This document shows, one piece after another, positions 1 to 12,621 of a stretch of DNA of 12,621 nucleotides. The notes beneath the pieces are model-generated. The model worked only from the letters and a program-made list of their open reading frames with translations. It searched no databases and was not told the origin of the DNA. Source of the stretch: an uncultured Chloroflexia bacterium. Its GTDB lineage: Bacteria > Chloroflexota > Limnocylindria > Limnocylindrales > CSP1-4. The stretch is taken from the NCBI GenBank assembly GCA_963766735.1, contig CAVYBU010000013.1, forward strand, positions 1-12,621, read 5' to 3'. The position numbers were made by a program, and so were the translations under genes. Within the stretch, counting starts at the first letter, position 1, and every line of letters starts with the position of its first letter.

Positions 1-311
1 GGGGCCGGAGCCGCGGCCGTCTCGGCCGTCTCGGCCGGTGTCGGGGGCTCCGGCGTCTCCGGGATCGCCTCGCCCTCTTGGCCCACCCAGGCGCAGACCT
101 GGTTCACCGGGACGGTGTCGCCCACCTGGGCGACGATGCGGAGGAGGACACCCTCGTCGAAGGCCTCCACCTCCATCGCGGACTTGTCTGTCTCGATCTC
201 GAACAGCACGTCGCCCCTTGCGACGTGGTCACCCTCGCGCTTGTTCCAGGCGATGACCGTGCACTCCTCGGTCGCCTGCCCCGGCTTCGGCATCAGGATC
301 GCGTGCGGCAT
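1..311 (-). CDS. Dihydrolipoamide acyltransferase (E2) of a 2-oxoacid/acetoin dehydrogenase complex; N-terminal lipoyl domain and linker, 3' end runs off the window
   Basis: Not in the ORF track; translated by hand from ATG at 311: MPHAILMPKPGQATEECTVIAWNKREGDHVARGDVLFEIETDKSAMEVEAFDEGVLLRIVAQVGDTVPVNQVCAWVG, then a Pro/Ala/Glu/Thr linker. Lipoylation motif ETDKS present; SD AGGAGG at about 321-326; directly downstream of E1. Confidence 0.93.
   Translation of the reverse strand, partial: MPHAILMPKPGQATEECTVIAWNKREGDHVARGDVLFEIETDKSAMEVEAFDEGVLLRIVAQVGDTVPVNQVCAWVGQEGEAIPETPEPPTPAETAETAAAPA
14..37. repeat. 9-bp tandem repeat (CGGCCGTCT x about 2.7) in the E2 linker
   Basis: Seen directly; encodes AET-AET-A on the minus strand. 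Confidence 0.7.
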
Positions 312-353: not shown

Positions 354-2662
354 CTAGAGGAGGCCCTTCGCGGCCGTGTAGACGTCCCCTGCGTTGGGCA
401 GGAACGCCTTCTCCAGGCACGTGCGGACTGCGGCGCGATGCCGTTGCGCGCGCCGATACGCGCTACCGGGGCGTCGAGGTAGTCGAAGGCCTCGCCCTGG
501 ATCCGCGACACGATCTCGCCGTGAAGCTGCCCGACGAGCACGGCCTGGCTCGCCACCACGCAGCGGCCCGGTCTTGCGCACCGACGCGAGCACGGTCTCG
601 ATGTCGAGCGGGACGAGCGAGCGCAGGTCCACGACCTCGGCCGAGACGCCGTCCTCGGCCGCCAGCGCTCGGCGGCCTGAGCGCGTCGTGCACCGCCGGC
701 CCCACGCCGACGAGCGTCAGGTCGGTGCCCTCGCGCTTCACGTCGGCCACGCCGAGCGGCACGAGGTAGTCGTCCTCGGGCACCGGCCCCTTGCGCCGTA
801 GTAGAGGCCCTGCGACTCGACGAACATCACCGGGTTGTTGTCGCGGATGGCGCGACTTGAGCATGCCCTTCGCGTCGTACGGCGTGGCGGGGTAGACCAC
901 GTAGAGCCCGGGGATGTGCGCGAACACGCTCTCCAGGCGTCTGCGAGTGCTGCCCGCCGTAGCCCTTGCCGCCGCCGACCGAGGCGCGGAAGACCAGCGG
1001 CACCTCGACCTGGCCGCCGCGACATGTAGTGCCACTTGGCGGCCTGGTTGCTGATCTGGTCCGATGCCATCAGCGCGAAGTCCATGTACATCAGCTCGAC
1101 CACCGGCCGCAGCCCGACCATGGCCGCGCCGACCGCGGTGCCGCAGATGGCGGCCTCGGAGATCGGCGTGTTGAACACGCGCTCGCGCCCGAACGCCTCG
1201 AGCAGGCCCTTGGTGACCTTGAAGGCGCCGCCGTAGTCGGCCACGTCCTCGCCGTAGAAGATGACGCGGCGGTCGCGCAGCATCTCCTCGATCATGCGCC
1301 TCCTTGATCGCGTCCTTGTAGGTGAGCTGCGCCGTCGGCGCGCTTGATCTCGGGGAGGGAGCCACGAGCTCCACCGCCGCTGCGCCGCCGGGAGGTCGTC
1401 GGGCTGCCGTGTCCGTGTACATGTACTCGATCACGTCGGCCGGATCGGGGTCCGCCGCCAGCGCCGCGCGGACGGCGGCGCGGGCGTTGCGCTCCTTCAC
1501 CCGGGTCTCGACCGCAGCGACCGCCGGCCTCGTCGGCGACGCCGGCCTCCAGGATCTGCGGCCTTGAGGCGCTCGATCGGGTCGACCGCCCTCCAGGCCG
1601 CCTCTTCCTCGCGCGTCCGGTACTCGTTGCGCGGGTCGCTCAGCGAGTGGCCGTAGTAGCGGTAGGTGTTGACCTCGATCAGGACCGGCCCCTGCCCGTG
1701 CGGCACAGCTCCGCGGCGCGGCGGACCGCGTCGCGCACGGCCAGCACGTCCATGCCGTTGACCACCTCGGCGTGCATGTCGTTGTCCGCGAAGCCGGCGG
1801 CGCGCCGGGCCAGGTGGTCGACGCCCATGACCTCGTCGTCGGAGCGATGCGTCATGCCGTAGTGGTTGTTCTGGATGAAGTAGATGACCGGCAGGCCGAA
1901 CGGGTGATCGCCCGCCAGGTGGTTGGTGAACTGCGCCTGCGCCGCCCAGTTGAGCGACTCGAGGACCACGCCGTTGGCATAGGCGCCGTCGCCCGCGAAG
2001 CAGCAGACGACCCGGTCCGAGCGCTCGTAGCGGTGGGCCATCGCGGCGCCGGTCGCGATCGGCACGCCGCCGCCCACGATGGCGTTGGCGCCCAGGTTGC
2101 CCGTGGAGAAGTCGGCGATGTGCATGCCGCCGCCGCGGCCCGCGCAGTAGCCGTCCTCCTTGCCGAACAGCTCCGCGATCACGCGGTAGACGTGCTCCTC
2201 CAGCGCCGCCTCGAGGAGCTCTTCGCGCGTCCCGCCGGCGCTGCCCGGAACCCGGGCGCGAAGCTGCTCGTCGTCCATGGTCCGGATGGCGGCGAAGCCC
2301 TTGGCGACGGTGTCGCCGTGGCCGCGGTGGGAGCTGGTGACGTTGTCGTCGGTGCGGAGCATGCTGCAGGCGCCGACCGGGGAGGCTTCCTGGCCGATGG
2401 AGACGTGCGTCGGTCCGCGGTAGTCATAACCCGGGAGCGCGTCGTAGCCGCCCGACCGAAGCCGGACGATCATCTCCTCGACCTCGCGGATCGCGAGCAT
2501 GTTGTCGAGCAGCTCCAGCGCCTCCGCGGGCGTGGTCGTGCCGGCCGCGATCTCGCTCGCCAGGCTGCCTGCATAGGTGAAGCCCCTGACGGTCCCCAGG
2601 GCCACCTCGAAAGGCTCCATGTCCGGGCGCACGTCGCTCTTGTAGGCCGTCTCGTTCGTCAC
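354..2662 (-). CDS. Fused ThDP-dependent dehydrogenase E1 alpha/beta (pyruvate/acetoin/2-oxoacid type), about 770 aa; reading frame interrupted by many single-base indels in about 415-1700
   Basis: Alpha motifs: [33 protein letters not shown]...[13 protein letters not shown]. Beta motifs stitched across frames: [81 protein letters not shown], ending KGLL* at 354. Likely start is GTG 2662 with SD GGAGG; ATG 2716 overlapping the DeoR stop is an alternative. Confidence 0.88.
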
Positions 2663-2712
2663 CTGGTTCCTCCGGTCCGCCGTCGGGCGCCCGGGAGGAG
2701 TCCCGCCGCCGC

Positions 2713-3519
2713 TCATGCCTTGATCACCTTGATGCCGAGCCGCGCGAGGGTGCGCGCCGCCCGTTCGTCGATGCCGTCATCCGTCACCAGGATGTCCACC
2801 TGGTCCAGTCGCCCTGCGTTGACCAGGGAGCGCGTGCCGAGCTTGCCGCTGTCGGCCAGCAGGATCACCTCGCGCGCTCGCCCGAGCACCAGCTCCTTGG
2901 TGTAGGCCTCGCCGGGATCCGTGGTCGTCATCCCGCCCTCCAGCGAGAACGCGAACGTGCCCATCAGGGCTCGGTCCACGTGGATGTCCTCGAGGAGTCG
3001 GCGGGTCATGGGTCCGACCATCGCCTGGCTTCGTTCGCGCAGCTCGCCGCCGACCAGGATGAGCCGTGGCCCACGCCCGAGCAGCTCGTTGGCCACGGGC
3101 AGGCTGTTGGTGACGACCGTGAGGCGATCCCAGCCATGGAGGAGCCGGGCGGCCGCGAGGACCGTGCTGCCGGAGTCCAGGTAGACGGTGTCGTCCGGGG
3201 CGAGGAGCCGCACGGCACGGTCGGCGATCCGCGACTTCTGCGCGGCGGCGGCCTCTGCCTTGACGTCGAAGTGCGGCTCGTCCAGCCGGCCGTCCATGGC
3301 GACGGCCCCGCCGTGCACGCGGCGGAGGCGCCCGCCCGCTGCCAGCTCGTTGAGGTCCCGGCGGACCGTGGCCGGGGAGACGCCCAGGGTGGCGCTGAGC
3401 TCCTCGAGACGGACTGCCCGGCGCGTGTCCACGATGGCGCCGAGGCGCTCGCGGCGGGCCGCGGCGAGGTCGTGCGGCGGGGCAGGTGCGGCCGAATCGC
3501 TCACGTTTGTCAACGACAT
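2713..3519 (-). CDS. DeoR/GlpR-family transcriptional repressor
   Basis: HTH LGVSPATVRRDLNELAAGGRLRRVHGGA; sensor-domain motifs YLDSGST, VVTNS, LVGGELR, LADSGKLG. Confidence 0.96.
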   Translation of the reverse strand: MSLTNVSDSAAPAPPHDLAAARRERLGAIVDTRRAVRLEELSATLGVSPATVRRDLNELAAGGRLRRVHGGAVAMDGRLDEPHFDVKAEAAAAQKSRIADRAVRLLAPDDTVYLDSGSTVLAAARLLHGWDRLTVVTNSLPVANELLGRGPRLILVGGELRERSQAMVGPMTRRLLEDIHVDRALMGTFAFSLEGGMTTTDPGEAYTKELVLGRAREVILLADSGKLGTRSLVNAGRLDQVDILVTDDGIDERAARTLARLGIKVIKA

Positions 3520-3525
3520 GAGCAG

Positions 3526-3534
3526 ATACTAGCA
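3526..3534 (-). promoter_or_regulatory. Extended -10 promoter (TGcTAGTAT) for the DeoR-E1-E2 operon, probably leaderless
   Basis: TGn-TAGTAT on the minus strand, separated by 6 nt from the ATG at 3519; no SD upstream. Confidence 0.6.
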
Positions 3535-3622
3535 CAATCGTGCATGATCGATCACATCTGGCGGAGCGGTCTCGCGGGGGCCATGCGGCGAGCGGGTCAC
3601 CTTCTCGCGTGGGCGTGAGCGG

Positions 3623-3656: not shown

Positions 3657-4403
3657 ATGCCCGAAGACCGTGCCATCTCGCGCAGTGTCCTGGCCGATCA
3701 GGTCAAGGACCGCCTGCTGCAGGGCATCCTTTCGGGCCGCTATCCACCCGACTCACGGATCGTGGAAACGCGGGTAGCACGCGAGCTGGGCACCAGCCAG
3801 GCGCCCGTCAGGGAGGCCCTCCGGGGTCTCGAGGCACTGGGCGTCGTCGAGATCCTGCCCTTCCGTGGCGCGCGCGTCCGGAGCCCAAGCCTCCAGGAGC
3901 TGCTGGAAGCCTATGCGGTGCGCTCGGCGCTGGAGTCACTCGGCGCGCGGCTGGGGATCCAGCGCATGACGGATGCGGACCTCGCGGAACTGGAGACGCT
4001 GCACGAGGCGATGCAGCAGGCCGCGAAGATCGGGGACCGACACGAGGTCGCGGTTCACGACGCGGCGTTCCACGCGCGGCTCCTTGCCCTCGCGGGCAAC
4101 CGGACGCTGGAGAGCGTGTGGAGATCGCTCGAGCCCTTCTCGCGGACCTACATCACGCTCGTCGCGCCGGGGGCGGACGCCCGATGGACCGCGGACCTGC
4201 ACCCGCGCATCCTGGCGGCCGTGCGCTCGCGGGATCCGGAAGCCGTGGTCGCGGCGCTGCGGCACCACTTCGACGAGGCCTCCGCCCACCTGGCCGAGGG
4301 CTGGCAGACGGAGCCCCCCGCCGATGGCCGCCGGTCGCGCGCCGCTGCGGGACGGGTCGCTGCGGGACGGGTCACGCTGCCGGGAGCAACCGAGACCCTC
4401 TAG
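3657..4403 (+). CDS. GntR-family regulator with FCD domain (FadR subfamily)
   Basis: wHTH LADQVKDRLLQGILSGRYPPDSRIVETRVARELGTSQAPVREALRGLEALGVV...RGARV; FCD motifs R-x3-E, DAAFH, AGN, HHF. Start placed at ATG 3657 (GGAG at 3648-3651) rather than 3540. Confidence 0.95.
   Translation: MPEDRAISRSVLADQVKDRLLQGILSGRYPPDSRIVETRVARELGTSQAPVREALRGLEALGVVEILPFRGARVRSPSLQELLEAYAVRSALESLGARLGIQRMTDADLAELETLHEAMQQAAKIGDRHEVAVHDAAFHARLLALAGNRTLESVWRSLEPFSRTYITLVAPGADARWTADLHPRILAAVRSRDPEAVVAALRHHFDEASAHLAEGWQTEPPADGRRSRAAAGRVAAGRVTLPGATETL
4343..4373. repeat. 15-bp tandem duplication (CGCTGCGGGACGGGT x2) in the GntR C-terminal tail
   Basis: Exact copies at 4343-4357 and 4358-4372; encodes AAGRV-AAGRV. 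Confidence 0.85.
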
Positions 4404-5344
4404 GCGCGACCCAGGATCGCGAGCACCTGCTCCGCGACCCGCGACGCCGACAGCCCGTAGATGTCCAGCAGCGCGTCGTTCGGGCCCGACTGGACGTAGG
4501 TGTCCTGGAGCCCGATCCGGTTGAGCTGCGTCGGGCGGAGCTCGCCCAGCACCTCGGCCACGGCGCCGCCCAGCCCACCGAGCACCGTGTGCTCCTCGAC
4601 GGTGATCACGCGGCCGGTCCGCTCCGCGGCGGCCACGATCGCCTCCGTGTCGAGGGGCTTGACCGTCGGCACGTGGAGGACGTGGGCGTCCACGCCCCGG
4701 GCCGCCAGCAGCTCGGCAGCCTCCACCACGCGCGGGGTCTGGGTACCCGTCCCGATCAGCGTGACGTCGCGCCCTTCGCGGACCACCACGGCCTTGCCGA
4801 ACGCGAAGCGGTAGCTCGCGTCGAACAGCCGGGCGGTGCCGTCGCGCACGAGGCGCACGTAGCAGGGTCCCTGGTAGGCCGCGGCCCAGCGGAGGACCAG
4901 GTCGGCCTCCACGTCGTCCGCCGGCGCCACCGAGACCATGCCCGGCATCGCCCGCATGATCGCGAGGTCGTCCACGATGATGTGGCTCATCCCCGTCTGG
5001 CCCGTGAACATGCCGGCGTACCCGGGCGTGATCTTCACGTTCGCGCCCGTCTGGGCGATCAGCACCCGGATCTGGTCCAGCGGCCGGACCACCGCGAACG
5101 AGACGAACGTGCTGATGAACGGGATGAGGCCCATGGTGGACAGCCCCGCGGCCACGCCCAGCATGTTCTGCTCGGCGATGCCCATCTGCAGGTAGCGGTC
5201 CGGGTGGGCCTTCTCGAAGATGTCGGCCCGCGTGGACGAGCCCACGTCGCCATCCAGCATCACGATCCGCGGGTCCTCGGTGGCCAGCGCCGCCACGGTC
5301 TCGCCGAAGATCTCCCGCATCGGGCGGCCAATCGGCAGCGTCAT
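4400..5344 (-). CDS. Split transketolase-like enzyme, C-terminal (pyrimidine-binding + C-terminal domain) subunit, 314 aa
   Basis: MREIFG, LDGDVGSST, GIAEQNM, DQIR, YVRLVR, TVKPLD, TVEEH...GGLG. True start is ATG 5344 in an ATGA overlap with the upstream subunit, not 6367. Confidence 0.95.
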   Translation of the reverse strand: MTLPIGRPMREIFGETVAALATEDPRIVMLDGDVGSSTRADIFEKAHPDRYLQMGIAEQNMLGVAAGLSTMGLIPFISTFVSFAVVRPLDQIRVLIAQTGANVKITPGYAGMFTGQTGMSHIIVDDLAIMRAMPGMVSVAPADDVEADLVLRWAAAYQGPCYVRLVRDGTARLFDASYRFAFGKAVVVREGRDVTLIGTGTQTPRVVEAAELLAARGVDAHVLHVPTVKPLDTEAIVAAAERTGRVITVEEHTVLGGLGGAVAEVLGELRPTQLNRIGLQDTYVQSGPNDALLDIYGLSASRVAEQVLAILGRA

Positions 5345-6219
5345 CGTCCGGCCCCTTCCGCGGTAGCGGGCTCGCCCAGCTCGGCCATGGCCAGCTCGTA
5401 CTCCTCGGGCTTGATCGCCCGCGTATGCCAGAAGTAGCGGCCCTCCATGAAGGAGACGCCCTTGCCCTTCACCGTGTGCGCGATGATCGCGGTCGGGCGA
5501 CCATCTCCCTGCTCGGCCTCGCGCAGAACGCCGACGATGGCGGGCATGTCGTGCCCGTCCAGCTCCAGGACCCGCCAACCGAAGGCGGCCCACTTGGCAG
5601 CCAGCTCTCCCGGTACCTGGGGCGCGATGCGCCCGTCGGGTCCGTCGCCCGGCCAGCCGTACTGCTGGAGCTTGTTGTGGTCGACGATGGCCACCAGGTT
5701 GTCCAGCCCGTAGCGCTGGGCGGCCATGGCGGCCTCCCAGACTTCGCCCTCCTGGCATTCGCCGTCGCCCAGCATCACCCAGGCCCGGACGTCCCTGCCC
5801 GTGAGCCGCGCGCCGAGAGCCATGCCCATGGCGGCGGAGATCCCCATGCCCAGCGACCCGGTGGACATGTCGAGGCCGGGCAGCCGGGTCATGTCCGGAT
5901 GGCCCTGGAGCCGTGAGTGGGCGCCGTCGAACGTGAGCAGCTCCTCCACGGGGAAGTAGCCCCGCAGCGCCATCGCCGCATACAGCGCGATGGACGAGTG
6001 GCCCTTGGACAGGATGAAGCGGTCCCGGTCGGGCCAGGCGGGATCGTCCGGCCGGATACGCAGCTCGTGGAAGTAGAGGGCAGCCAGGATGTCGGCGGCG
6101 GAGAGGGGACCGCCGAGGTGGCCCGCGCGGGCGTAGTAGACGCTGCGGATGATCTCGACGCGGATGTTGCGAGCCACCTCCTCGAGACGCGCGATCCCGG
6201 CGGTGTCCAACGTGCTCAC
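5341..6219 (-). CDS. Split transketolase-like enzyme, N-terminal ThDP-binding subunit, 292 aa
   Basis: GHLGG, DRFILSKGH, LQGHP, STGSLG, GDGECQEGEVWEA...N, TVKGKG, WH. GTG start at 6219 in a GTGA overlap with the cupin stop; SD GAGGAAGG. Confidence 0.95.
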   Translation of the reverse strand: MSTLDTAGIARLEEVARNIRVEIIRSVYYARAGHLGGPLSAADILAALYFHELRIRPDDPAWPDRDRFILSKGHSSIALYAAMALRGYFPVEELLTFDGAHSRLQGHPDMTRLPGLDMSTGSLGMGISAAMGMALGARLTGRDVRAWVMLGDGECQEGEVWEAAMAAQRYGLDNLVAIVDHNKLQQYGWPGDGPDGRIAPQVPGELAAKWAAFGWRVLELDGHDMPAIVGVLREAEQGDGRPTAIIAHTVKGKGVSFMEGRYFWHTRAIKPEEYELAMAELGEPATAEGAGR

Positions 6220-6584
6220 TGGGGGTCCTTCCTCTCGTAGGAACCGGAGACCACCGGGGGCGAGAACAGGCACAGGAGCTCCAGCGGCTCCGGGCCGTCC
6301 GCCTCGGTCGCGTGGAAGGTGCCGGGCGGCACGTGCACCACCACGCCGGGCTCAACCTCCGCCACACCGTCCGAGGTCACGATCCGGCCGCGGCCCGCCG
6401 TGCAGTAGATCGTCTCTTCCTCGGCGGGATGGACGTGGCCGGTGGGCTTCGAGCCGGCGGGGTAGACGGAGACGCCCATCGAGACCTGGCGGGCGTCGCT
6501 GTTGTGGGGCCCGAAGTACGAGTGCCATACCCGGCCGGGAAGCGGAAACTGCTCCGCCTCGTTGCGTGCGACCCGCTTGATCAT
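6216..6584 (-). CDS. Monocupin (cupin_2-like) metalloprotein, 122 aa
   Basis: Motif 1 G-x5-HxH-x4-E-x6-G (GSKPTGHVHPAEEETIYCTAG) and motif 2 G-x5-PxG-x2-H (GVVVHVPPGTFH), giving a full 3His-1Glu set; SD GGTGAGGT. Confidence 0.92.
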   Translation of the reverse strand: MIKRVARNEAEQFPLPGRVWHSYFGPHNSDARQVSMGVSVYPAGSKPTGHVHPAEEETIYCTAGRGRIVTSDGVAEVEPGVVVHVPPGTFHATEADGPEPLELLCLFSPPVVSGSYERKDPQ

Positions 6585-6629
6585 CGAGGTACCTCACCGT
6601 CGGACGGCAGGCGCCGTCTCGGACACATA

Positions 6630-6641
6630 ATCGATTATCGA
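6630..6641. promoter_or_regulatory. Operator copy 1, ATCGATTATCGA
   Basis: Exact 12-mer recurring at 11738 and 12002; dyad TCGAT-t-ATCGA; overlaps the palindrome ATAATCGATTAT (6627-6638). Confidence 0.85.
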
Positions 6642-6669
6642 CGATACGCGCCCCGGCGCCGGCGGTCAA
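6641..6669 (-). promoter_or_regulatory. sigma70/sigmaA-type promoter of the cupin-transketolase operon
   Basis: TTGACC (6669-6664) - 17 nt - TATCGT (6646-6641). Confidence 0.75.
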
Positions 6670-6726
6670 GGCCGCGACGGGGCGTAGTGAGCCCGCCGCC
6701 CGGCGGGGGAGGCGCAGGCGGGCACG

Positions 6727-6765
6727 AAAAGGGGGTCCTCCGCCGCATGGCGGGAGGACCCCCTT
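6727..6765 (-). terminator. Intrinsic terminator after the substrate-binding protein gene
   Basis: AAGGGGGTCCTCCGCC (6729-6744) pairs with GGCGGGAGGACCCCCTT (6749-6765) with one bulge and a 4-nt loop; TTTT follows the GC stem on the minus strand; about 30 nt after tandem TAG TAG stops. Confidence 0.88.
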
Positions 6766-6797
6766 CGACTGGCGTCAGACGAGCTGGCGCCGGGCTA

Positions 6798-8201
6798 CTA
6801 CCACTGGCACTTGTTGGGAGGAGTCTCCGGGTCGCACGTCGCGACGGACTTGATCTGGTCGAGGATCTCCAAGCCCTTCGCGGCGTCGAGGAGGACGGCC
6901 TCGCCCGCCGTGCCGTCCGCGTTGAACGGCGTGTAGGAGGGGTTGACGGCGTTCACGCCCCCATCGGTGTAGAGGCCGGGACCGGTGATGCCGTCGTAGT
7001 CGATGTCCGTGCCCGCGCGGATGAGGGCCAGGCAATCGGCGTACGTGTAGCACTTCTCGCCATCTTCGCCGACCGCATGCATGGCCGGAGCCCAGGCACT
7101 CGCCTTGTACGACCCGGCGGCTTCGACGGCGAGCGCCGTCTGGATCATCACGTCGTACGTGGAGAAGTGGTACTGGTCCTCGGCGCCGCCGAACTTGTCG
7201 CCGTTCACCTGGTCCCACAGCGGCTGGTAGAACGCCCACGCGGCGGTGGAGGTGTCGGGCGAGAAGGCCGCGAAGCCGATGCCCTTCTGGGAAGCGATGG
7301 GCGCGGTGCCCAGCGTGTTGATGAACTCCTGCAGGACCCAGCCGGTCTCGCCGATCCAGTTGAGCGACAGGCCGGCCTCATCCGCCTGCTTGATCAGCGT
7401 GGCCGATTCCACCGAACCCGCCTGGACGATGACGGCGTCCGGCTTCAGGTCGGCGATCTTCTGGGCTTCTGCCCGGTAGGACGGCTGCTCGGCCGGGCTG
7501 TCGATGCGGGCCATTACTTCGAGCCCAAGTGCCTCGGCAGCCTTCTCGGCCGCGTCGGCTGCCAGCTGGAAGCCTTCGACCTGGGTGGCGAAGACCACGA
7601 CCTTCTTGGCACCGATCGACTCCGCGTACAGGCTCCCGGACGTGCCCAGGGCCTCGTCGAGACCCTGTGCCCGGAAGATCGGCTCCGCGGCCTTGCCGCC
7701 CAGGTTGCCCGGGATCGCGCCGCCGTGGACGGACGGCCCGAGCGGCGAATCGTTCTCGGTCCACCAGTCCATCATGTAGTCGCGGTAGGTGCGGTACCCG
7801 TGGGCGATGCTGACCACGATCTCGGCGCCGCGCTGCTCGAGGCAGGCCCGGGCCGCCTGGGCCTCACCGACCGTGCCGAGGTCCTCGTGGTACAGCTCCC
7901 ACGTGCGGCCCAGCGGCGGGTCGAGGTTGATGACCTCCTTGACCGGGAAGACGACGTCGTTGGTGAGCGATTCACCGTACGCCGCGAACTCGCCGGTGTA
8001 GTAGGCCAGCTCGCAGACCGCTACCGGCCCGGTCTCGGCGGGCGGTGCGTCGGTGGCTGCGGGCGGTGCGTCGGTGGCTGCGGGCGGCGCGGCGGTGTCG
8101 CCGGGTGCCGCTGTGGATGATGCGCCGCCGCACGCGGCGACGAGCAGGGCGAACACCATGATGAGGACCATGGCGCGACCCGACTTGATCCTGTCGACCA
8201 T
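6798..8201 (-). CDS. ABC transporter substrate-binding lipoprotein, LivJ/LivK-like (type 1 periplasmic binding fold)
   Basis: Signal peptide with lipobox LVAAC-GG; Pro/Ala linker; TGEFAAYG, SYRAEAQKI..LKPDAV, TYD, GTDIDYDGITG; strong SD AGGAGG; last gene of the Liv-type operon. Confidence 0.92.
   Translation of the reverse strand: MVDRIKSGRAMVLIMVFALLVAACGGASSTAAPGDTAAPPAATDAPPAATDAPPAETGPVAVCELAYYTGEFAAYGESLTNDVVFPVKEVINLDPPLGRTWELYHEDLGTVGEAQAARACLEQRGAEIVVSIAHGYRTYRDYMMDWWTENDSPLGPSVHGGAIPGNLGGKAAEPIFRAQGLDEALGTSGSLYAESIGAKKVVVFATQVEGFQLAADAAEKAAEALGLEVMARIDSPAEQPSYRAEAQKIADLKPDAVIVQAGSVESATLIKQADEAGLSLNWIGETGWVLQEFINTLGTAPIASQKGIGFAAFSPDTSTAAWAFYQPLWDQVNGDKFGGAEDQYHFSTYDVMIQTALAVEAAGSYKASAWAPAMHAVGEDGEKCYTYADCLALIRAGTDIDYDGITGPGLYTDGGVNAVNPSYTPFNADGTAGEAVLLDAAKGLEILDQIKSVATCDPETPPNKCQW
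8038..8087. repeat. 21-bp tandem repeat (x about 2.4) encoding the ATDAPPA linker of the lipoprotein
   Basis: GCGGGCGGTGCGTCGGTGGCT at 8038-8058 and 8059-8079, partial copy 8080-8087. Confidence 0.88.
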
Positions 8202-8245
8202 TCTGATTCTCTCCTCCTGTTTCGGGACACCCTTGGAATTGGGGG

Positions 8246-8962
8246 TCAGATCCGGTATCCCTCCTTGAGCTGCTGGGTCGTCAGTTGGGCGGCGTCCATC
8301 ACTGCGAACGCCTCGCCCAGGCTCAGGACCATCACCCGGTCGGCGACCTGGAGAGCCTTGGTGGCGTTCTGCTCGGCGAGGATGATGGCGACGCCCCTGG
8401 TCTGGTGGATCTCCTTGATCTTGTCGAAGAACATGTCGACGTAGAGCGGGGAGAGGCCCGCCGTCGGCTCGTCGAGGAGCAGCACCTTGGGGTCCTGCAT
8501 GAGGGCCCGCCCGCAGGCCACCATGCGCGACTCGCCGCCGCTGAGCGTTCCCGCCTGCTGGGCCTGCTGGTCCTTGAGCGACGGGAAGAGGTCGAACACC
8601 TCCGCCAGCCGCTCGTCGCGAGACCGGCTGCCGATCATCCCCCCGACCTGGAGGTTCTCCAGGACGGTGAGCTTGGCAAAGGTGCCCTTCTCCTGGGGCA
8701 CGTAGCCGATCCCCCGCCCGGCGGTCTCGTACGGCGGCAGGGCGGACACGTCCTCCCCCTGGAACCTGATCTTCCCGGCCATGAGCGGGATGAGACGCGC
8801 CAGGGTTGCCAGCAGGGTGGTCTTGCCCGCGCCGTTGGCGCCCAGCACGGCGAAGACCTCGTTGCCGACCGAGAAGTCGAGCCCCTTGAGGACGGTGACC
8901 CCGTGGTAGCCGCTGCGCAGGCCTTCGACCTCGAGAGAGACGGAGACGGCCCCGTTAGACAT
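8246..8962 (-). CDS. livF: HAAT-family ABC ATP-binding protein, LivF-like
   Basis: GANGAGKTT, GIGYVPQ, QAGTLSGGE, LLLDEPTAGLSP, AEQN. The symbol denotes family only, not substrate. Confidence 0.93.
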   Translation of the reverse strand: MSNGAVSVSLEVEGLRSGYHGVTVLKGLDFSVGNEVFAVLGANGAGKTTLLATLARLIPLMAGKIRFQGEDVSALPPYETAGRGIGYVPQEKGTFAKLTVLENLQVGGMIGSRSRDERLAEVFDLFPSLKDQQAQQAGTLSGGESRMVACGRALMQDPKVLLLDEPTAGLSPLYVDMFFDKIKEIHQTRGVAIILAEQNATKALQVADRVMVLSLGEAFAVMDAAQLTTQQLKEGYRI

Positions 8963-9746
8963 GGCCCTCTCCCAGGTAGTTCTCGACCACGGTCCGGTTC
9001 TCGCGGATCATCTGCGGGTCACCCTTCAGGACCACGTTGCCCTCGGCCATGAAGTTGACCTCGTCGCACAGGCCCCAGATGACGTTGAGGTCGTGCTCCA
9101 CGATCACCACCGAGGTGCCCGCGGCCGCGAGGTCCCTGACCACGCTCATCACCTTCTCGGTCAGGTCATCGGGAAGACCGGCCGTCGGTTCGTCGAGCAG
9201 GAGGAACGTGGGTCGCAGGAGCAGGCAGCGAATGATGTCGAGGAGCTTCTTCTCGCCGGCCGACATCGCGAACGTGGTCGGATCGGTGAAGCCGAAGTAG
9301 TCCAGGTAGTGGCGGATCTCGTCTTCGTGCTGCTTGAAAACGGTTCGCTCGCTGAAGATCCGAGCCGGCTGCTCGTACCTGGCCTCGGCCACGGCGAGCA
9401 GGAGCGAGTCCCAGATGGTGAGCTTGTCGAAGTCCATGATCACCTGGTTGGACTTCACGACGCCGAAGCGCGCCATCCTGCTGGCGGGCAGGCTGGAGAG
9501 CATGACCTCGGCGCCGCCCGGGCGCACGAGGGAGACCGTGCCGCTGTCGAGCGGGGTGGAGTGCATGATCATCCGCATCAGCGTCGTCTTGCCGGCCCCG
9601 TTGGGTCCGATCAGCCCCTCGATCGGCTTGTCGCCCAGGACGAGGTCGTCGACGTTCACCACGACGCGACCGGAGAAGCTCTTGACGGCCCCCTGGACAC
9701 GGATCTGGGGACGGCTCACGGCCTTGGCCCCGACGTCAGCGACCAT
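8955..9746 (-). CDS. livG: HAAT-family ABC ATP-binding protein, LivG-like (divergent)
   Basis: GLIGPNGAGKTT, degenerate signature MSAGEKK, LLLDEPTAGL, IVEHD, C-terminal V.ENYLG. Confidence 0.92.
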   Translation of the reverse strand: MVADVGAKAVSRPQIRVQGAVKSFSGRVVVNVDDLVLGDKPIEGLIGPNGAGKTTLMRMIMHSTPLDSGTVSLVRPGGAEVMLSSLPASRMARFGVVKSNQVIMDFDKLTIWDSLLLAVAEARYEQPARIFSERTVFKQHEDEIRHYLDYFGFTDPTTFAMSAGEKKLLDIIRCLLLRPTFLLLDEPTAGLPDDLTEKVMSVVRDLAAAGTSVVIVEHDLNVIWGLCDEVNFMAEGNVVLKGDPQMIRENRTVVENYLGEGHV

Positions 9747-10674
9747 GGATCTTCTCCATGAGCCTGTCGCGCCGCATGTCGCCCAGGATGCCCGTCGGCC
9801 GGAACAGCAGCACGATGATCAGCGTGAGCCCGAACACCGCCTCCCGCAGCACCGGGATCGCCTGCGTGTACCACTCGCGCGGGAGGGGCAGGTAGGACTG
9901 GATCACGATGTCGAACAGCCCCACGGAGAGGACGACGCCGACGACCGCTCCCCAGACGCGCGCCGAGCCGCCCAGCACCAGGCCCACCATGACGGCCAGG
10001 GTGAGGTCGACCCCGAGGTTCGAGATCTCGAGGGTCCGCACGAAGACCCCGTACATCGCGCCCAGGAACCCCATCGCCGCCGAGGTGAGCGCGAACATCC
10101 AGAGCTTGGAGCGGAACGTGGCCTTCCCCAGGCTCCGTGCCAGTGGCTCGTTGCCGCCGATCGCGATCAGGAGGCGCCCGTACGGCGAGCGGTGGACCCG
10201 CCACACGTAGGCGAGGATCGCGGCCACGACGAGGGTCAGGATCACCAGCCACAGGAACTCGTTGTCCTTGACGCCGCCGACGTCAAAGGGGAAGTCGAGC
10301 CCGCCCATGCCGCGCGCCCCGCCGGTGAGGTCATCCTCGGTGGTCGCCAGGATCGCGACGGCGGTGGCGAACCCGAGGGTTCCCACGAGCATGCCGTCCG
10401 TGTCGAGGTCGGAGATCAGCCAGCCGACGAGGAGGCCCGCAAGGCCGGCGACCACGGCCGCCAGCGCGGCGCACACCAGGAACACCAACGGCTCTCCGAA
10501 CGGCCAGTCCACCCGGACCTGCAGCACGCCGAAGACGTACATCCCGAGGCCCCAGAAGCCCACCACGCCGAAGTTGGCGACCCGGGTGAGGCCCAGCTGG
10601 AGGTGCAGCAGCAGGCCGAGGCCGATGATCATCACGACCTCGAACAGCCCGGCAATCAGGAATGCGTCGAGCAT
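9736..10674 (-). CDS. livM: HAAT-family ABC permease, LivM-like
   Basis: Hydrophobic; LTGGARG, SPYGRLLIAIGGNEPLARSLG, LVLGG...WGAVVG, FRPTGILG. Confidence 0.92.
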   Translation of the reverse strand: MLDAFLIAGLFEVVMIIGLGLLLHLQLGLTRVANFGVVGFWGLGMYVFGVLQVRVDWPFGEPLVFLVCAALAAVVAGLAGLLVGWLISDLDTDGMLVGTLGFATAVAILATTEDDLTGGARGMGGLDFPFDVGGVKDNEFLWLVILTLVVAAILAYVWRVHRSPYGRLLIAIGGNEPLARSLGKATFRSKLWMFALTSAAMGFLGAMYGVFVRTLEISNLGVDLTLAVMVGLVLGGSARVWGAVVGVVLSVGLFDIVIQSYLPLPREWYTQAIPVLREAVFGLTLIIVLLFRPTGILGDMRRDRLMEKIHGR

Positions 10675-10678
10675 GCCG

Positions 10679-11551
10679 CTACACCTTCGCCGTCTCGGTG
10701 AGCCGGCGACCGCGCACCTTGAGCAGGACCATGAAGAAGACGATCAGCGCGAGCTGCGCGTAGAGCACCTGGCCGAAGGTCAGGGACATCGCAGCCAGGG
10801 CCACGCCCGTGAGCACCCCGACCCCGATGACGCCGCCGAGCCCCCAGCTGCCACCCACGAGGACCACCAGCAGGATGAACAGGAACTGACGCCAGCCGAG
10901 CAGCGGCGCCACGTTTGAGCCGACACCGAGGAACAAGCCGGCCAGCCCGCCTGCCACGCCGGCGATGAACCAGATCAGCGTCGTGACGGCGAGGGGACGG
11001 ATCCCGCTCGCCTGGGCGAGGTCTTCGTCGCTGGCCAGGGCCCGGATCTGGAGGCCGTACCGCGATCGCTGGATGAACAGGTACAGGAGCCCGGCGAGCA
11101 CGGCGACGCTGGCGAGCGCGAGCAGGCGGAATGACGTCACCCCGACGCCGATCACCATGACCGTGTCGGGGGGCGGGACGTCGAAGAACCGCACCGGATA
11201 GCCGAACACGAACTGAAGGCCGTGCCGGAGGAGGATCGACAGTCCGAACGAGATGATGATCAGTTCCAGCGAGCCCACGTTGCGCTTCTTCGCGGGCCGG
11301 AAGATGGCGAAGTAGGTGGCGACGCTGAGGACGCCGGCCATCAGCGCGGCCGGGAGCACGACGGCGTAGAAGTCGAGGCCATACGTGGTGTTGAGCCACA
11401 TCCCGAAGTAGGCGCCGAGCGTGATGGTCTCCGAGTACGCCACGTTGATCAGGCCGGTCAGGCGGTACAGCAGCGCGAAGCCCAGCGCTGCCAGGATCAG
11501 GGGGGCGTACTCGGACAGGCCGATGACCACGGACTGGGTGACGAACTCCAT
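10679..11551 (-). CDS. livH: HAAT-family ABC permease, LivH-like
   Basis: ALGFALLYRLTGLINVAYSE..LGAY, SRYGLQIRALASDEDLAQASGI, VLVGG; no obvious SD before the ATG. Confidence 0.92.
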   Translation of the reverse strand: MEFVTQSVVIGLSEYAPLILAALGFALLYRLTGLINVAYSETITLGAYFGMWLNTTYGLDFYAVVLPAALMAGVLSVATYFAIFRPAKKRNVGSLELIIISFGLSILLRHGLQFVFGYPVRFFDVPPPDTVMVIGVGVTSFRLLALASVAVLAGLLYLFIQRSRYGLQIRALASDEDLAQASGIRPLAVTTLIWFIAGVAGGLAGLFLGVGSNVAPLLGWRQFLFILLVVLVGGSWGLGGVIGVGVLTGVALAAMSLTFGQVLYAQLALIVFFMVLLKVRGRRLTETAKV

Positions 11552-11637
11552 CAGCCGTGGCCCGCCCGTCGCGGGCGTACCGCGTCGCTATTCCAGGCGG
11601 CACCGAACCCTTGGGATCCGCTGGATCCCAAGGGCAT
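11551..11637 (-). CDS. Putative 28-aa leader ORF whose stop overlaps the permease start (TGATG)
   Basis: MPLGSSGSQGFGAAWNSDAVRPRRAGHG*; weak SD (GAGAG); translation unproven. Confidence 0.3.
   Translation of the reverse strand: MPLGSSGSQGFGAAWNSDAVRPRRAGHG
11608..11634. promoter_or_regulatory. Perfect 12-bp inverted repeat in the transporter 5' leader
   Basis: CCCTTGGGATCC-GCT-GGATCCCAAGGG; only TT follows on the minus strand. The structure is certain, the function is not. Confidence 0.6.
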
Positions 11638-11645
11638 CTCTCTGG

Positions 11646-11678
11646 TCAATCCTGGTCCGCTCGGGGGGGCTGGCTCAT
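11646..11678 (-). CDS. Putative 10-aa leader peptide MSQPPRADQD
   Basis: AGGAG SD (11690-11686) 7 nt before ATG 11678, inside the predicted leader; contains a C7 run. Confidence 0.4.
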   Translation of the reverse strand: MSQPPRADQD

Positions 11679-11737
11679 GCCGCTGCTCCTGAGGGGTGCT
11701 CGATCACATGTGAACTGGGACGCGTGATGGCTGGATC

Positions 11738-11749
11738 ATCGATTATCGA
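11738..11749. promoter_or_regulatory. Operator copy 2, ATCGATTATCGA
   Basis: Exact 12-mer 2 nt downstream of the -10 box of the transporter promoter; degenerate copy GCGATAGTCGA at 11781-11791 abuts the -35. Confidence 0.85.
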
Positions 11750-11751
11750 GG

Positions 11752-11780
11752 ATGATAGAGGCGCCCACCGGCCAATGCAA
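11752..11780 (-). promoter_or_regulatory. sigma70/sigmaA-type promoter of the ABC transporter operon
   Basis: TTGCAT (11780-11775) - 17 nt - TATCAT (11757-11752). Confidence 0.75.
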
Positions 11781-11962
11781 GCGATAGTCGACGACCCCGA
11801 TGGTCGGGAACAGAGCCAGAGAGCCCCATGGCGGCACGCCCGGGCGCGATCATCCTGTCCCGCCGCCGGCCAGCGTCAGCGGGCCCGGTTGCCGCCACGG
11901 CAGCGAGCCCCGCTCGCTCTGGCCGAGCGCCGTCACGGCACGAGGGGCGCGGTGCGCCTGCC

Positions 11963-11992
11963 TTGACTCCAGACCGGGGATCGGCTTACTGT
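11963..11992 (+). promoter_or_regulatory. sigma70/sigmaA-type promoter of the Tm-1-like gene
   Basis: TTGACT (11963-11968) - 18 nt - TACTGT (11987-11992). Confidence 0.72.
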
Positions 11993-11995
11993 TTC

Positions 11996-12014
11996 TCGAC
12001 AATCGATTATCGAT
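11996..12014. promoter_or_regulatory. Operator copy 3, extended form TCGACAA-TCGATTA-TCGAT
   Basis: Exact 12-mer at 12002-12013 inside three TCGA boxes spaced 7 bp apart, starting 3 nt after the -10. Confidence 0.85.
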
Positions 12015-12051
12015 GTATTGGCCCGCAGTCGGCGAAGTAGCAGGAGTATCA

Positions 12052-12621
12052 GTGGCGACGGTCGTGCTTCTGGGCACGCTGGACACGAAGGGCATTGAGT
12101 ATGCCTTCCTGCGTGATCGGGTCCGGGAGTTGGGCTGCGACGTCATCCTCGTGGACTGCGGCGTCATGAGCGCCTCGCCGATCGCGGACGTGAGCGCCGA
12201 TGAGGTCGCGGCCGCTGCCGGCGAGGATCGTGCAGCTCTCGCCGCCGCCGGAGACCGGGGGTCCGCTATGGCAGCGATGACCCGTGGCGCCACAGAGACC
12301 GTGTGCCGCCTGCACGCGGAGGGCCGGATCGGGGCAATCCTCGGCCTCGGCGGGTCCGGAGGTTCATCCCTGATCTCGGCTGCCATGCAGTCGTTGCCGA
12401 TCGGCGTCCCCAAGCTCCTGGTGTCCACGATGGCCTCCGGCGACACGCGGCCCTACGTGGGCACGACCGACATCGCGATGTTGTACTCGGTCGTGGACAT
12501 CGCCGGCATCAACGGGATCTCCGAGCGGATCCTCGGCAATGCCGCCGCGGCCGTGTCGGGGATGGCCAGGGCATCGGAGGCTTTCATCCCGGAGGCCCGC
12601 GGGAAGCCGTTGATCGGTGCG
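12052..12621 (+). CDS. Tm-1-like ATP-binding domain protein (UPF0261), 3' end runs off the window
   Basis: Not in the ORF track; translated by hand from GTG 12052 (SD CAGGAG): MATVVLLGTLDTKGIEYAFLRDRVRELG...GLGGSGGSSL...LPIGVPKLLVSTMASGDTRPYVGTTDIAMLYSVVDIAGINGIS...LGNAAAA. These are hallmark UPF0261 motifs. Confidence 0.93.
   Translation, partial: MATVVLLGTLDTKGIEYAFLRDRVRELGCDVILVDCGVMSASPIADVSADEVAAAAGEDRAALAAAGDRGSAMAAMTRGATETVCRLHAEGRIGAILGLGGSGGSSLISAAMQSLPIGVPKLLVSTMASGDTRPYVGTTDIAMLYSVVDIAGINGISERILGNAAAAVSGMARASEAFIPEARGKPLIGA

Follow-up and report, generated by a model that had tools for sequence, protein, structure and literature searches.

One palindromic operator heads a cupin–split transketolase operon, a HAAT-type importer and a UPF0261 gene in an uncultured Limnocylindria bacterium

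The stretch of DNA described here, called the window throughout, is an entire contig of 12,621 bp (CAVYBU010000013.1, hereafter C13) from the 3.6 Mb, 35-contig assembly GCA_963766735.1 (about 70% G+C) of an uncultured bacterium of the Limnocylindria (Chloroflexota; Limnocylindrales; CSP1-4). It carries a cupin gene followed by the two halves of a transketolase (TK), a HAAT-type importer and the beginning of a UPF0261 gene, arranged as three units that share one palindromic operator, beside a gene for a GntR/FCD regulator. The proteins were named by matches to Pfam and other family profiles and by sequence matches to the PDB, and these matches confirm the gene content of positions 4400–12621 as given in a preliminary description made from the sequence alone. 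The genes and sites of this part of the window are:

3657..4403, plus strand: GntR/FCD regulator, GntR1 (GntR 8.1e-14, FCD 6.7e-28)
4400..5344, minus strand: C-terminal transketolase subunit, TK-C (Transket_pyr 6.5e-35, Transketolase_C 1e-32; 6YAJ 3.5e-80)
5341..6219, minus strand: N-terminal transketolase subunit, TK-N, which binds thiamine diphosphate (ThDP) (Transketolase_N 9e-51; 6YAK 1.1e-84)
6216..6584, minus strand: metal cupin of 122 aa, first gene of the cupin–TK operon (Cupin_2 4.4e-14)
6630..6642, no strand: operator 1, an exact match that abuts the -10-like hexamer of the cupin–TK promoter
6728..6765, minus strand: GC-rich hairpin with TTTT after it, which probably terminates the transporter operon (read from the sequence)
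6798..8201, minus strand: HAAT-type substrate-binding lipoprotein (Peripla_BP_6 9e-16; LVAAC lipobox)
8246..8962, minus strand: ABC ATPase, LivF-like (ABC_tran 9.1e-29)
8955..9746, minus strand: ABC ATPase, LivG-like (ABC_tran 5.5e-18, BCA_ABC_TP_C 1.6e-4)
9736..10674, minus strand: permease, LivM-like (BPD_transp_2 6.6e-32)
10679..11551, minus strand: permease, LivH-like, first gene of the transporter operon (BPD_transp_2 1.7e-28)
11732..11750, no strand: operator 2, exact palindrome with a second copy displaced by 7 bp, downstream of the -10-like hexamer TATCAT in the livH promoter
11996..12014, no strand: operator 3, exact palindrome with a second copy displaced by 7 bp, 38 bp upstream of where the UPF0261 gene begins
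12052..12621, plus strand: UPF0261 protein (Tm-1-like, MarK family), N-domain only, the gene being cut by the contig end (PF06792 4.6e-64, NF002674 3.4e-67)

Exact copies of ATCGATTATCGA stand at 6630, 11738 and 12002. When as many as two mismatches are tolerated, the window holds eight matches against 0.47 expected, and none of 200 shuffled sequences reaches eight, so the count is far above chance. The core of the operator is the palindrome TCGAT-W-ATCGA, and at two of the three sites in the window a second, imperfect copy lies 7 bp off. The three sites precede the cupin and split transketolase genes, the livHMGF and binding-protein genes, and the UPF0261 gene, respectively. A -35/-10-like site at 6669–6641, whose -10-like hexamer TATCGT occupies 6646–6641, abuts operator 1, and the TATCAT hexamer at operator 2 sits before 11750; the position directly after the -10 hexamer is the usual site of a repressor. 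The separation into three transcription units is supported by start and stop overlaps, by the hairpin and T run after the binding-protein gene, and by the promoter-like site abutting the operator. The cupin, TK-N and TK-C genes are coupled by GTGA and ATGA overlaps, the probable start of TK-N being the GTG at 6219, which overlaps the cupin stop, and that of TK-C lying in the ATGA shared with the TK-N stop. The hairpin at 6728–6765 was missed by a consensus scan that required five T residues. The importer set is complete, with two BPD_transp_2 permeases, two ATPases, one of them with a BCA_ABC_TP_C tail, and a Peripla_BP_6 protein.

The regulon is far larger than the window. The exact 11-mer TCGATWATCGA has ten sites in the whole assembly, and each lies upstream of a gene that belongs, here or in relatives, to the same conserved gene neighbourhood, which we call the island and which is better assembled on another contig, C30, than on C13. 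Beyond the three sites of the window, the exact copies are:

C30 207823 and 212931: counterparts of two of the C13 sites
C30 218028: before a second operon of HAAT, UPF0261, TIM-barrel and phosphoenolpyruvate (PEP)-utiliser genes
C30 240184: before an operon of a short-chain dehydrogenase/reductase (SDR), a metallo-beta-lactamase-fold protein (MBL) and an alcohol dehydrogenase (ADH)
C4 96897, with a strain copy on C32: before iolB, a transaldolase-family gene and iolA
C25 99285: before a gene for an EamA transporter

Copies with one mismatch lie between an RpiB gene and a PEP_hydrolase–UPF0261–PEP_hydrolase unit, and before a paralogue of triose-phosphate isomerase (TIM). The complete genome of a relative (G006) contains the exact 11-mer five times, four of them in its island, and a reversed control pattern not at all. 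The operators stand at the same intergenic places in all nine loci from the genus that were compared, and two loci of Acidimicrobiia (L072, L073) have the same operator directly upstream of the cupin gene. This is a real and conserved regulon of the repressor type, and the earlier suggestion that three units share one operator is thereby borne out with exact copies, a shuffling control and positions kept in relatives.

The candidates for the repressor that probably binds the operator are GntR1, whose gene lies beside the transketolase in all nine loci of the genus, and GntR2, a 60% identical paralogue. In two of the loci (L018, L020) an operator-like site precedes a unit of a C_GCAxxG_C_C gene and the GntR1 gene, which makes autoregulation probable there. 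The arrangement resembles that of known regulators of the FadR subfamily (FCD-type GntR proteins), with the regulator gene beside the regulated operons and a palindrome overlapping the promoter. Sites of that subfamily have a GT-N-AC (GT...AC) core, whereas the operator described here consists of ATCGAT units phased by 7 bp and has no such core.

The conservation of the island was assessed with the C-terminal transketolase half in a scan of 185,579 species genomes, from which the best 80 of at least 587 loci were analysed. TK-C orthologues with 76–94% identity occur in 13 of 24 genomes of the genus and are missing from all 16 genomes searched in the neighbouring family. All nine 20-kb loci from the genus contain GntR1, TK-C, TK-N, the cupin and a unit of a PEP-utiliser and GntR2. 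Other content varies: the HAAT importer is complete in six of the nine, UPF0261 is in view in six, and several have an EamA or transaldolase-family gene inserted. The cupin gene adjoins the transketolase in 49 of the 80 closest loci, so that the recurrence of these genes in other genomes, which the preliminary description had offered as a check, is observed. Loci of at least 19 kb within the closest 80 comprise 33 with the cupin–TK pair and 12 that are cupin-less. Among the 33, GntR is present in 24, HAAT in 15, UPF0261 in 12, PEP_hydrolase in 9, the PEP-utiliser in 17, a molybdenum (Mo) hydroxylase in 15, a transaldolase in 15, E1/E2 in 8, and 26 have one or more exact operators; among the 12, each such feature is found in none or one. 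These loci are not independent of each other, because most come from related metagenome-assembled genomes (MAGs) of Limnocylindria and some belong to the same genomes as the nine loci of the genus.

The trio of cupin, TK-N and TK-C extends to Acidimicrobiia, a Propionibacteriaceae MAG, Streptosporangiaceae and Dormibacterota. One array from Actinomycetes (L070) combines HAAT genes, an enzyme for beta-keto-acid cleavage (BKACE), an SDR, Dak1, Dak2, the cupin and the transketolase; a Dak-type kinase as a regular substitute for UPF0261 beside the cupin–TK pair was nevertheless rejected, as it occurs in only this one of the 80 loci. In Acidimicrobiia, L072 has HAAT genes divergent from a run of C_GCAxxG_C_C, cupin, TK, SDR, MBL and E1 genes. 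The C_GCAxxG_C_C gene, whose product is putatively redox-active, is absent from the window; 21 of the 80 loci have it, beside GntR1 or immediately before the cupin (for instance L018 4779–5387 and L072 8060–8602). In the cultured Firmicute Brevibacillus fluminis (L094, 59–10945), a split transketolase of the Tyr/Thr type described below shares an array with genes for a class III aminotransferase, a DMFA2-like protein, a HAAT importer, an SDR and a TIM barrel resembling xylose isomerase, so that HAAT importers are linked to this transketolase clade outside the Chloroflexota as well.

Both transketolase halves match the split transketolase of Carboxydothermus hydrogenoformans, with E-values of 1.1e-84 for the N-terminal half (6YAK) and 3.5e-80 for the C-terminal half (6YAJ). 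In alignment to 6YAK and human transketolase, TK-N keeps aGHlGG, SKGH, QGHPD, GDGE...DHN and fwH, and TK-C keeps GMSH. The ThDP and metal motif and the donor-site histidines, which we number H26, H66, H100, H261 and H473 after the E. coli enzyme, are thus retained by alignment. The acceptor side is different. By alignment of TK-C to 6YAJ and the human enzyme, the histidine at E. coli position 461 (human 416) is replaced by Tyr111, the aspartate at 469 (human 424) by Thr119 and the preceding glutamate by Gln118; Arg12, the serine of DVGSST and the arginine of VRLVR are kept. His461 and Asp469 are the residues that we take to bind the acceptor phosphate and 2-hydroxyl. The two-subunit architecture, the strong sequence match and the cofactor and donor residues are common to the window enzyme and that of C. 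hydrogenoformans, whereas the acceptor motif of the latter, THAGLTVGEDGASH, reads GYAGMFTGQTGMSH in the window. The enzyme had been called atypical from the outset, and the two substitutions now give that description a precise content.

The Tyr/Thr variant represents a wide clade rather than a local oddity, because the canonical histidine or aspartate is found in none of the closest 80 relatives. The first position is Tyr in 79 of them and Phe in one, the second is Thr, Ala or Ser, and the most distant members among the 80 mostly read TGKTGKTH. An acceptor or product aldehyde that lacks a 2-hydroxyl and bears a carboxylate would fit the altered pocket. The window enzyme keeps the histidine that sets transketolases apart from DXS, and the available text of one source describes this histidine and reports that substitutions of E. 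coli D469 accompany non-natural, aromatic acceptors (PMC13663882).

The cupin retains H50, H52, E56/E57 and H91, which form a His-His-Glu...His metal site, in at least 95% of 50 aligned sequences. Its PDB matches are weak and confined to generic cupins. Identification with the DUF4867 cupin of sulfoglycolysis or with KdgF was rejected, with no DUF4867 match in Pfam and no KdgF among the PDB matches, and look-ups of the cupin and the binding protein in the ESM Atlas yielded family names only. Gene order ties the cupin to the transketolase and not to UPF0261, because it is translationally coupled to the former and adjacent to it in the 49 loci mentioned above; UPF0261 lies within 10 kb in only the 12 of 33 long cupin–TK loci. 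A different cupin sits by the UPF0261 and TIM-barrel genes on C30 and has no tblastn match to that of the window.

The UPF0261 protein reads LDTKG at residues 10–14, with the ATP-site lysine present. In the accessible account of MarK from Novosphingobium aromaticivorans, this UPF0261 protein is an ATP-dependent, ADP-forming kinase that phosphorylates acetovanillone and related phenolics, the first catalytic function of the family, reported in 2025 with the crystal structure 9MPY; the lysine that contacts ATP is K16 in MarK and K20 in Tm-1 (PMC12624787). A full-length paralogue on C30, 74% identical to the window protein, aligns from end to end with Tm-1 (9.1e-90) and MarK (2.6e-68), has the C-domain PF23189 (4.7e-93) and keeps the FHATG histidine, the substrate-site His219 of MarK. 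The proteins thus share a Pfam family, the LDTKG lysine motif and, in the C30 paralogue, that histidine. MarK, from an acetovanillone operon, works without a partner, whereas here the gene is paired with a PEP-hydrolase-like TIM barrel and accompanied by enzymes of sugar-acid type; such a TIM-barrel partner recalls the fusion in Tm-1, to which the C30 paralogue is closer than to MarK. The gene for this TIM barrel follows UPF0261 in the closest orthologous loci (L028, 87% identity; L026 and L036, 83%; L019, 82%). Contigs with the rest of the window gene or with its partner were sought in the assembly and none was found, all three PEP_hydrolase genes being on C30. UPF0261 as the ATP-binding partner of the 577-aa PEP-utiliser was also considered and rejected, since the operon of the latter has its own protein with PPDK_N and swivel domains.

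These results alter the preliminary description in part. Its conserved and co-regulated catabolic gene set, its variant transketolase and the co-occurrence of the genes hold; its view that UPF0261 has no established bacterial function has been overtaken by MarK, its grouping of the cupin with UPF0261 has to be given up, and the processing of a small non-canonical substrate by these two proteins does not follow from a regulon that is larger and includes sugar-acid and lower-inositol enzymes. The combination of genes and its biochemistry were, as that description supposed, not found in the literature searched.

What could be the chemistry served by this regulon? Indications come from an aldehyde dehydrogenase (ALDH) and its neighbours. 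In 13 loci a transaldolase-family gene, the ALDH, the cupin, TK-N and TK-C follow each other in that order on one strand. The best ten PDB matches of the ALDH are all methylmalonate or malonate-semialdehyde dehydrogenases (1.7e-156 to 2.6e-128), the next family appearing at 1.8e-73, so the protein is by its matches clearly of the CoA-acylating malonate-semialdehyde (IolA) type. In the present genome, the operator at C4 96897 heads iolB, a transaldolase-family gene and iolA. IolB reaches 218.5 bits, the cut-off being 205, and the IolB-like 2QJV is its sole PDB match (4.3e-45); the gene is spread over two frames that overlap, which hints at a frameshift or a fault in the assembly. The surrounding region, C4 71277–96714, is a myo-inositol cluster with two IolD genes and one IolG that all score above their cut-offs, a second IolG-like gene just below its cut-off, two IolE-like genes, IolB and the IolA-type gene, and its transaldolase-family genes lie beside IolD (73210–74262) and between IolB and IolA (94762–95847). 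No IolC reaches the cut-off in this genome (best 77.8 of 300 bits), and near the iol genes there is no class II aldolase of the IolJ type, the only, weak match being on another contig. Five of five relatives in the genus have IolB and none has IolC above the cut-off. IolB also adjoins a Tyr/Thr-type transketolase in three further Chloroflexota loci (L078, L096, L102). The co-regulated SDR is KduD-like, being nearest to gluconate 5-dehydrogenase (1e-47) and 2-deoxy-D-gluconate 3-dehydrogenase (3e-47), and the SDR–MBL pair directly follows the transketolase in six loci. The operon of this pair was also considered as a vitamin B6 route, but neither pyridoxal dehydrogenase nor 4-pyridoxolactonase is among the listed PDB matches, and the MBL is nearest to generic MBL hydrolases. 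The TIM of the island is 34% identical to the other copy in the genome. Because IolB, the transaldolase, the IolA-type ALDH, the KduD-like SDR, TIM and RpiB are co-regulated, the enzymes point to deoxy- or keto-acid sugar or lower-inositol chemistry that ends in malonate semialdehyde.

The lower myo-inositol pathway of Bacillus subtilis consists of the isomerase IolB, the kinase IolC, the aldolase IolJ and the malonate-semialdehyde dehydrogenase IolA. It resembles the present system in that IolB and an IolA-type enzyme stand under a common operator, a cupin-fold isomerase feeds a carbon–carbon cleavage, and the predicted end is malonate semialdehyde converted to acetyl-CoA. The present system differs in lacking IolC at the cut-off, in the five relatives as well, and an IolJ-type aldolase near the iol genes, in having a transaldolase-family gene between iolB and iolA and a variant transketolase under the same control, and in its importer, which is of the HAAT rather than the sugar type of ABC transporter. 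Another partial parallel is the oxidative deoxyribose pathway of Pseudomonas simiae, which, in the portion of the source at hand, is controlled by a GntR regulator and employs a molybdenum dehydrogenase for the deoxy sugar, a lactonase, and an SDR whose substrate is the 2-deoxy-aldonate (PMC6365646). That deoxyribose and deoxyribonate pathway is thus a precedent for a Mo enzyme, a lactonase and an SDR serving a deoxy sugar under GntR control, whereas the same portion describes an IorAB-type Mo enzyme, transporters of the major facilitator superfamily (MFS), BKACE cleavage and a GntR palindrome GTGATCAC, and names no transketolase, transaldolase or UPF0261 (PMC6365646).

The gene set probably feeds an acidic, sugar-derived compound into central metabolism by an undescribed route. 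More specifically, and with a confidence that stays somewhat short of even, we propose that the window is one arm of a Limnocylindria regulon for the catabolism of an imported deoxy- or keto-acid sugar through ketol transfer to malonate semialdehyde. A repressor of the GntR/FCD type, with GntR1 and GntR2 as the candidates, would bind TCGAT-W-ATCGA, often doubled at a shift of 7 bp, at or after the -10 element. The HAAT importer would take up an anionic sugar-derived compound, expected to be a deoxy- or keto-acid sugar related to the lower intermediates of myo-inositol breakdown, and the metal cupin would isomerise or open it. The split transketolase, with donor and cofactor residues kept and the acceptor-reading His and Asp lost, would then remove a C2 ketol unit, and the transaldolase-family enzyme may remove a C3 unit from a related intermediate. 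The aldehyde that remains would be oxidised to acetyl-CoA by the co-regulated IolA-type CoA-acylating dehydrogenase, while the ketol units would enter the pentose-phosphate pool with the aid of the dedicated TIM and RpiB paralogues. UPF0261 and the PEP-hydrolase-like TIM barrel may supply an ATP-dependent phosphorylation step in this network.

Several points weigh against this proposal. What is proposed for GntR repression, the class of substrate, the reaction of the transketolase and a role of UPF0261 is all deduced from gene families and neighbourhoods, and the counted loci, being mostly from related Limnocylindria MAGs, lack independence. That the remaining aldehyde would be malonate semialdehyde or a close analogue is our own chemical reasoning. 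HAAT importers are not typical carriers of sugar acids, and the sole PDB match of the binding protein at 6798–8201 is a weak one (E 0.0013) to 4EY3, which we take to be a binder of aromatic acids. Neither KdgF nor a sugar isomerase is among the structures that the cupin matches significantly, IolB is adjacent to the transketolase in none of the 49 cupin–TK loci, and in G006 it lies 3.3 Mb from the island and is not preceded by the exact operator. The operator itself is without the core expected for the FadR subfamily, and it also precedes an operon of dikinase and Mo-hydroxylase genes.

This last operon, found on C30 and in relatives, encodes the 577-aa PEP-utiliser, GntR2, an unnamed protein, the FAD/FeS and Mo subunits of a hydroxylase, an ADH, the PPDK_N/swivel protein and an SDR. 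The unnamed protein, encoded by a gene of about 300–390 codons that follows GntR2 and heads the Mo-hydroxylase genes (C30 227418–228587 and the same place in relatives), has no Pfam match. The operon lies outside the window and may serve the same pathway as the transketolase branch, to which co-regulation and neighbourhood tie it. If the two do belong together, the whole regulon could be devoted to a ring-hydroxylated aromatic or N-heteroaromatic compound, an idea that we find rather doubtful. The HAAT system would bring the compound into the cell, the split dikinase or a MarK-like UPF0261 or both would phosphorylate it, and the Mo enzyme would hydroxylate it; the cupin would cleave the ring or decarboxylate, and the transketolase would act on a ring-cleavage product or an aromatic acceptor. 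The operator before the PEP-utiliser–GntR2–Mo-hydroxylase–dikinase operon speaks for this idea, as do the frequencies of the PEP-utiliser (17 of 33) and Mo-hydroxylase (15 of 33) in the long cupin–TK loci, the match of the binding protein to 4EY3, an FGase-family gene adjoining the island in G006, and a Propionibacteriaceae MAG (L068) in which an operon of cyclase, ADH, Mo-hydroxylase and UPF0261 genes diverges from the cupin–TK genes. The phenolic substrates described for MarK (PMC12624787) and the preference for aromatic acceptors described for D469 variants of transketolase (PMC13663882) would fit as well, as far as the available parts of these sources go. However, an aromatic substrate leaves the co-regulated iolB–transaldolase–iolA genes, the TIM and RpiB paralogues and the KduD-like SDR unexplained; the dikinase operon encodes its own ATP-binding half and would need neither UPF0261 nor the transketolase; seven of the 33 long cupin–TK loci are without UPF0261, the PEP-utiliser, the gene after GntR2 and the Mo enzyme; and no ring-cleavage dioxygenase family was recognised.

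It is also conceivable, though unlikely, that there is no single pathway, and that separate catabolic modules (transporters, cupin–TK, UPF0261 and TIM barrel, lower inositol, Mo-hydroxylase) form a patchwork under one GntR repressor or two paralogous ones, being shuffled among strains and induced by the same compound or by related ones. The HAAT genes are absent from L018 and L020 and reduced to a partial binding-protein gene in L022; among close relatives UPF0261 moves or is missing and EamA and transaldolase genes are inserted or found elsewhere; about 10 kb of additional modules after 11855 distinguish the two strain versions in the bin; and there are two GntR paralogues, and C30 carries two HAAT systems along with three PEP_hydrolase genes. 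A mere patchwork is harder to reconcile with an exact operator that is nearly confined to the island and travels with the cupin–TK genes into Acidimicrobiia, and tight arrays of transaldolase, IolA, cupin, TK, SDR and MBL genes argue for one chemical theme. A substrate with another anionic group, a sulfonate or carboxylate in the phosphate position, handled as in sulfo-transketolase and sulfo-transaldolase routes with export of a C2 or C3 remnant by EamA, appears highly improbable. Transketolase, transaldolase, ALDH, isomerase-type cupins and an EamA exporter do stand under one operator, the histidine of the phosphate pocket is replaced, and cupins with no assigned role are reported from sulfoglycolysis clusters in the accessible text of one source (PMC11968277); yet Pfam gave no DUF4867 match for the cupin, neither a sulfoquinovosidase nor a desulfonating enzyme was seen, and the ALDH clearly falls among the malonate-semialdehyde dehydrogenases that acylate CoA.

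Our preferred reading, acid-sugar catabolism by ketol transfer, can be extended to a joint scheme that we regard as decidedly unlikely in its entirety, in which a kinase-poor pathway, with the Tyr/Thr transketolase and transaldolase in place of IolC and IolJ, operates together with a kinase–lyase pair of UPF0261 and the TIM barrel. In its first part, the Tyr/Thr transketolases would cleave 2-deoxy-keto-aldonates such as 2-deoxy-4-pentulosonate and the transaldolase-family enzyme would cleave 5-dehydro-2-deoxygluconate, both giving malonate semialdehyde for IolA and sending C2 and C3 units straight to the pentose-phosphate pool. In its second part, UPF0261 as a kinase and the PEP-hydrolase-like protein as a lyase or aldolase would act on a keto-acid sugar delivered by their partner cupin, as a non-homologous analogue of IolB–IolC–IolJ or KduI–KdgK–KdgA. 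Both orphan families, UPF0261 and the PEP-hydrolase-like TIM barrel, would gain a function if this were true.

Should ketol-transfer catabolism of an acid sugar be confirmed, a transketolase and transaldolase route would be added to the known ways of degrading deoxy- or keto-acid sugars or cyclitol products. A large clade of split transketolases would receive a natural role, with substitutions in the acceptor pocket at the positions that engineers alter, notably D469 of the E. coli enzyme. UPF0261 and the TIM barrel that partners it are both widespread, and just one protein of the two families has been characterised; they are placed here in a defined regulon with testable ligands. The carbon sources of Limnocylindria, which are abundant in soil and uncultured, are of ecological interest.

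The state of the assembly bears on how gene copies are counted. Positions 26–11855 of C13 correspond to C30 201225–213048 with 96.8% identity, and many small contigs of the bin are likewise copies, at 95–99% identity, of stretches of the large ones; such strain copies, with respect to larger contigs or to one another, are C9–C13, C16, C24, C26, C29 and C31–C33. The bin appears to hold two close strains, and C13 probably represents, because so many small contigs copy large ones, the island as it exists in the second strain and not a duplicate within one genome. Gene copy numbers taken from this assembly therefore call for caution. The left part of the window is its least reliable portion: positions 1–2800 are 89.7% identical to C30 201225–204000, with 36 single-base insertions or deletions between 324 and 1698. 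They disrupt the E1 (E1 beta) and E2 frames of the following genes, which complete the list of features:

3..311, minus strand: first part of an E2 (lipoyl-domain) gene that the contig end truncates (Biotin_lipoyl 5.7e-18)
357..2776, minus strand: frame-broken E1 alpha-beta gene of the 2-oxoacid or acetoin dehydrogenase type (E1_dh 1.8e-33 and Transket_pyr 4e-26, in different frames)
2713..3519, minus strand: DeoR-family regulator heading the E1/E2 operon (DeoRC 1.5e-45, HTH_DeoR 8e-16)

The counterpart of the E1 gene on C30 is an intact fusion of E1 alpha and beta with 804 codons that matches the pyruvate dehydrogenase E1 alpha and beta models, and the broken left end of C13 looks like a consensus error or a mixture of strains rather than a pseudogene. 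The DeoR–E1/E2 unit adjoins GntR1 in 10 of the 49 cupin–TK loci.

Two minor features of the intergenic regions may be added. An Rfam scan of the window, including the 500-bp gap between livH and UPF0261, gave no family at the gathering score, and a riboswitch or other known RNA in that gap was dropped from consideration. The livH leader contains, at 11608–11634, a perfect inverted repeat with a 12-bp stem (CCCTTGGGATCC / GGATCCCAAGGG); it was rejected as a conserved element, as a variant occurs on C30 only and none in the other relatives' loci compared. Between the divergent DeoR and GntR genes lies a gap of 137 bp that contains, at 3520–3560, the palindrome TGATCGATCA, which has the ATCGAT core in common with the operator and differs from it in the flanks.

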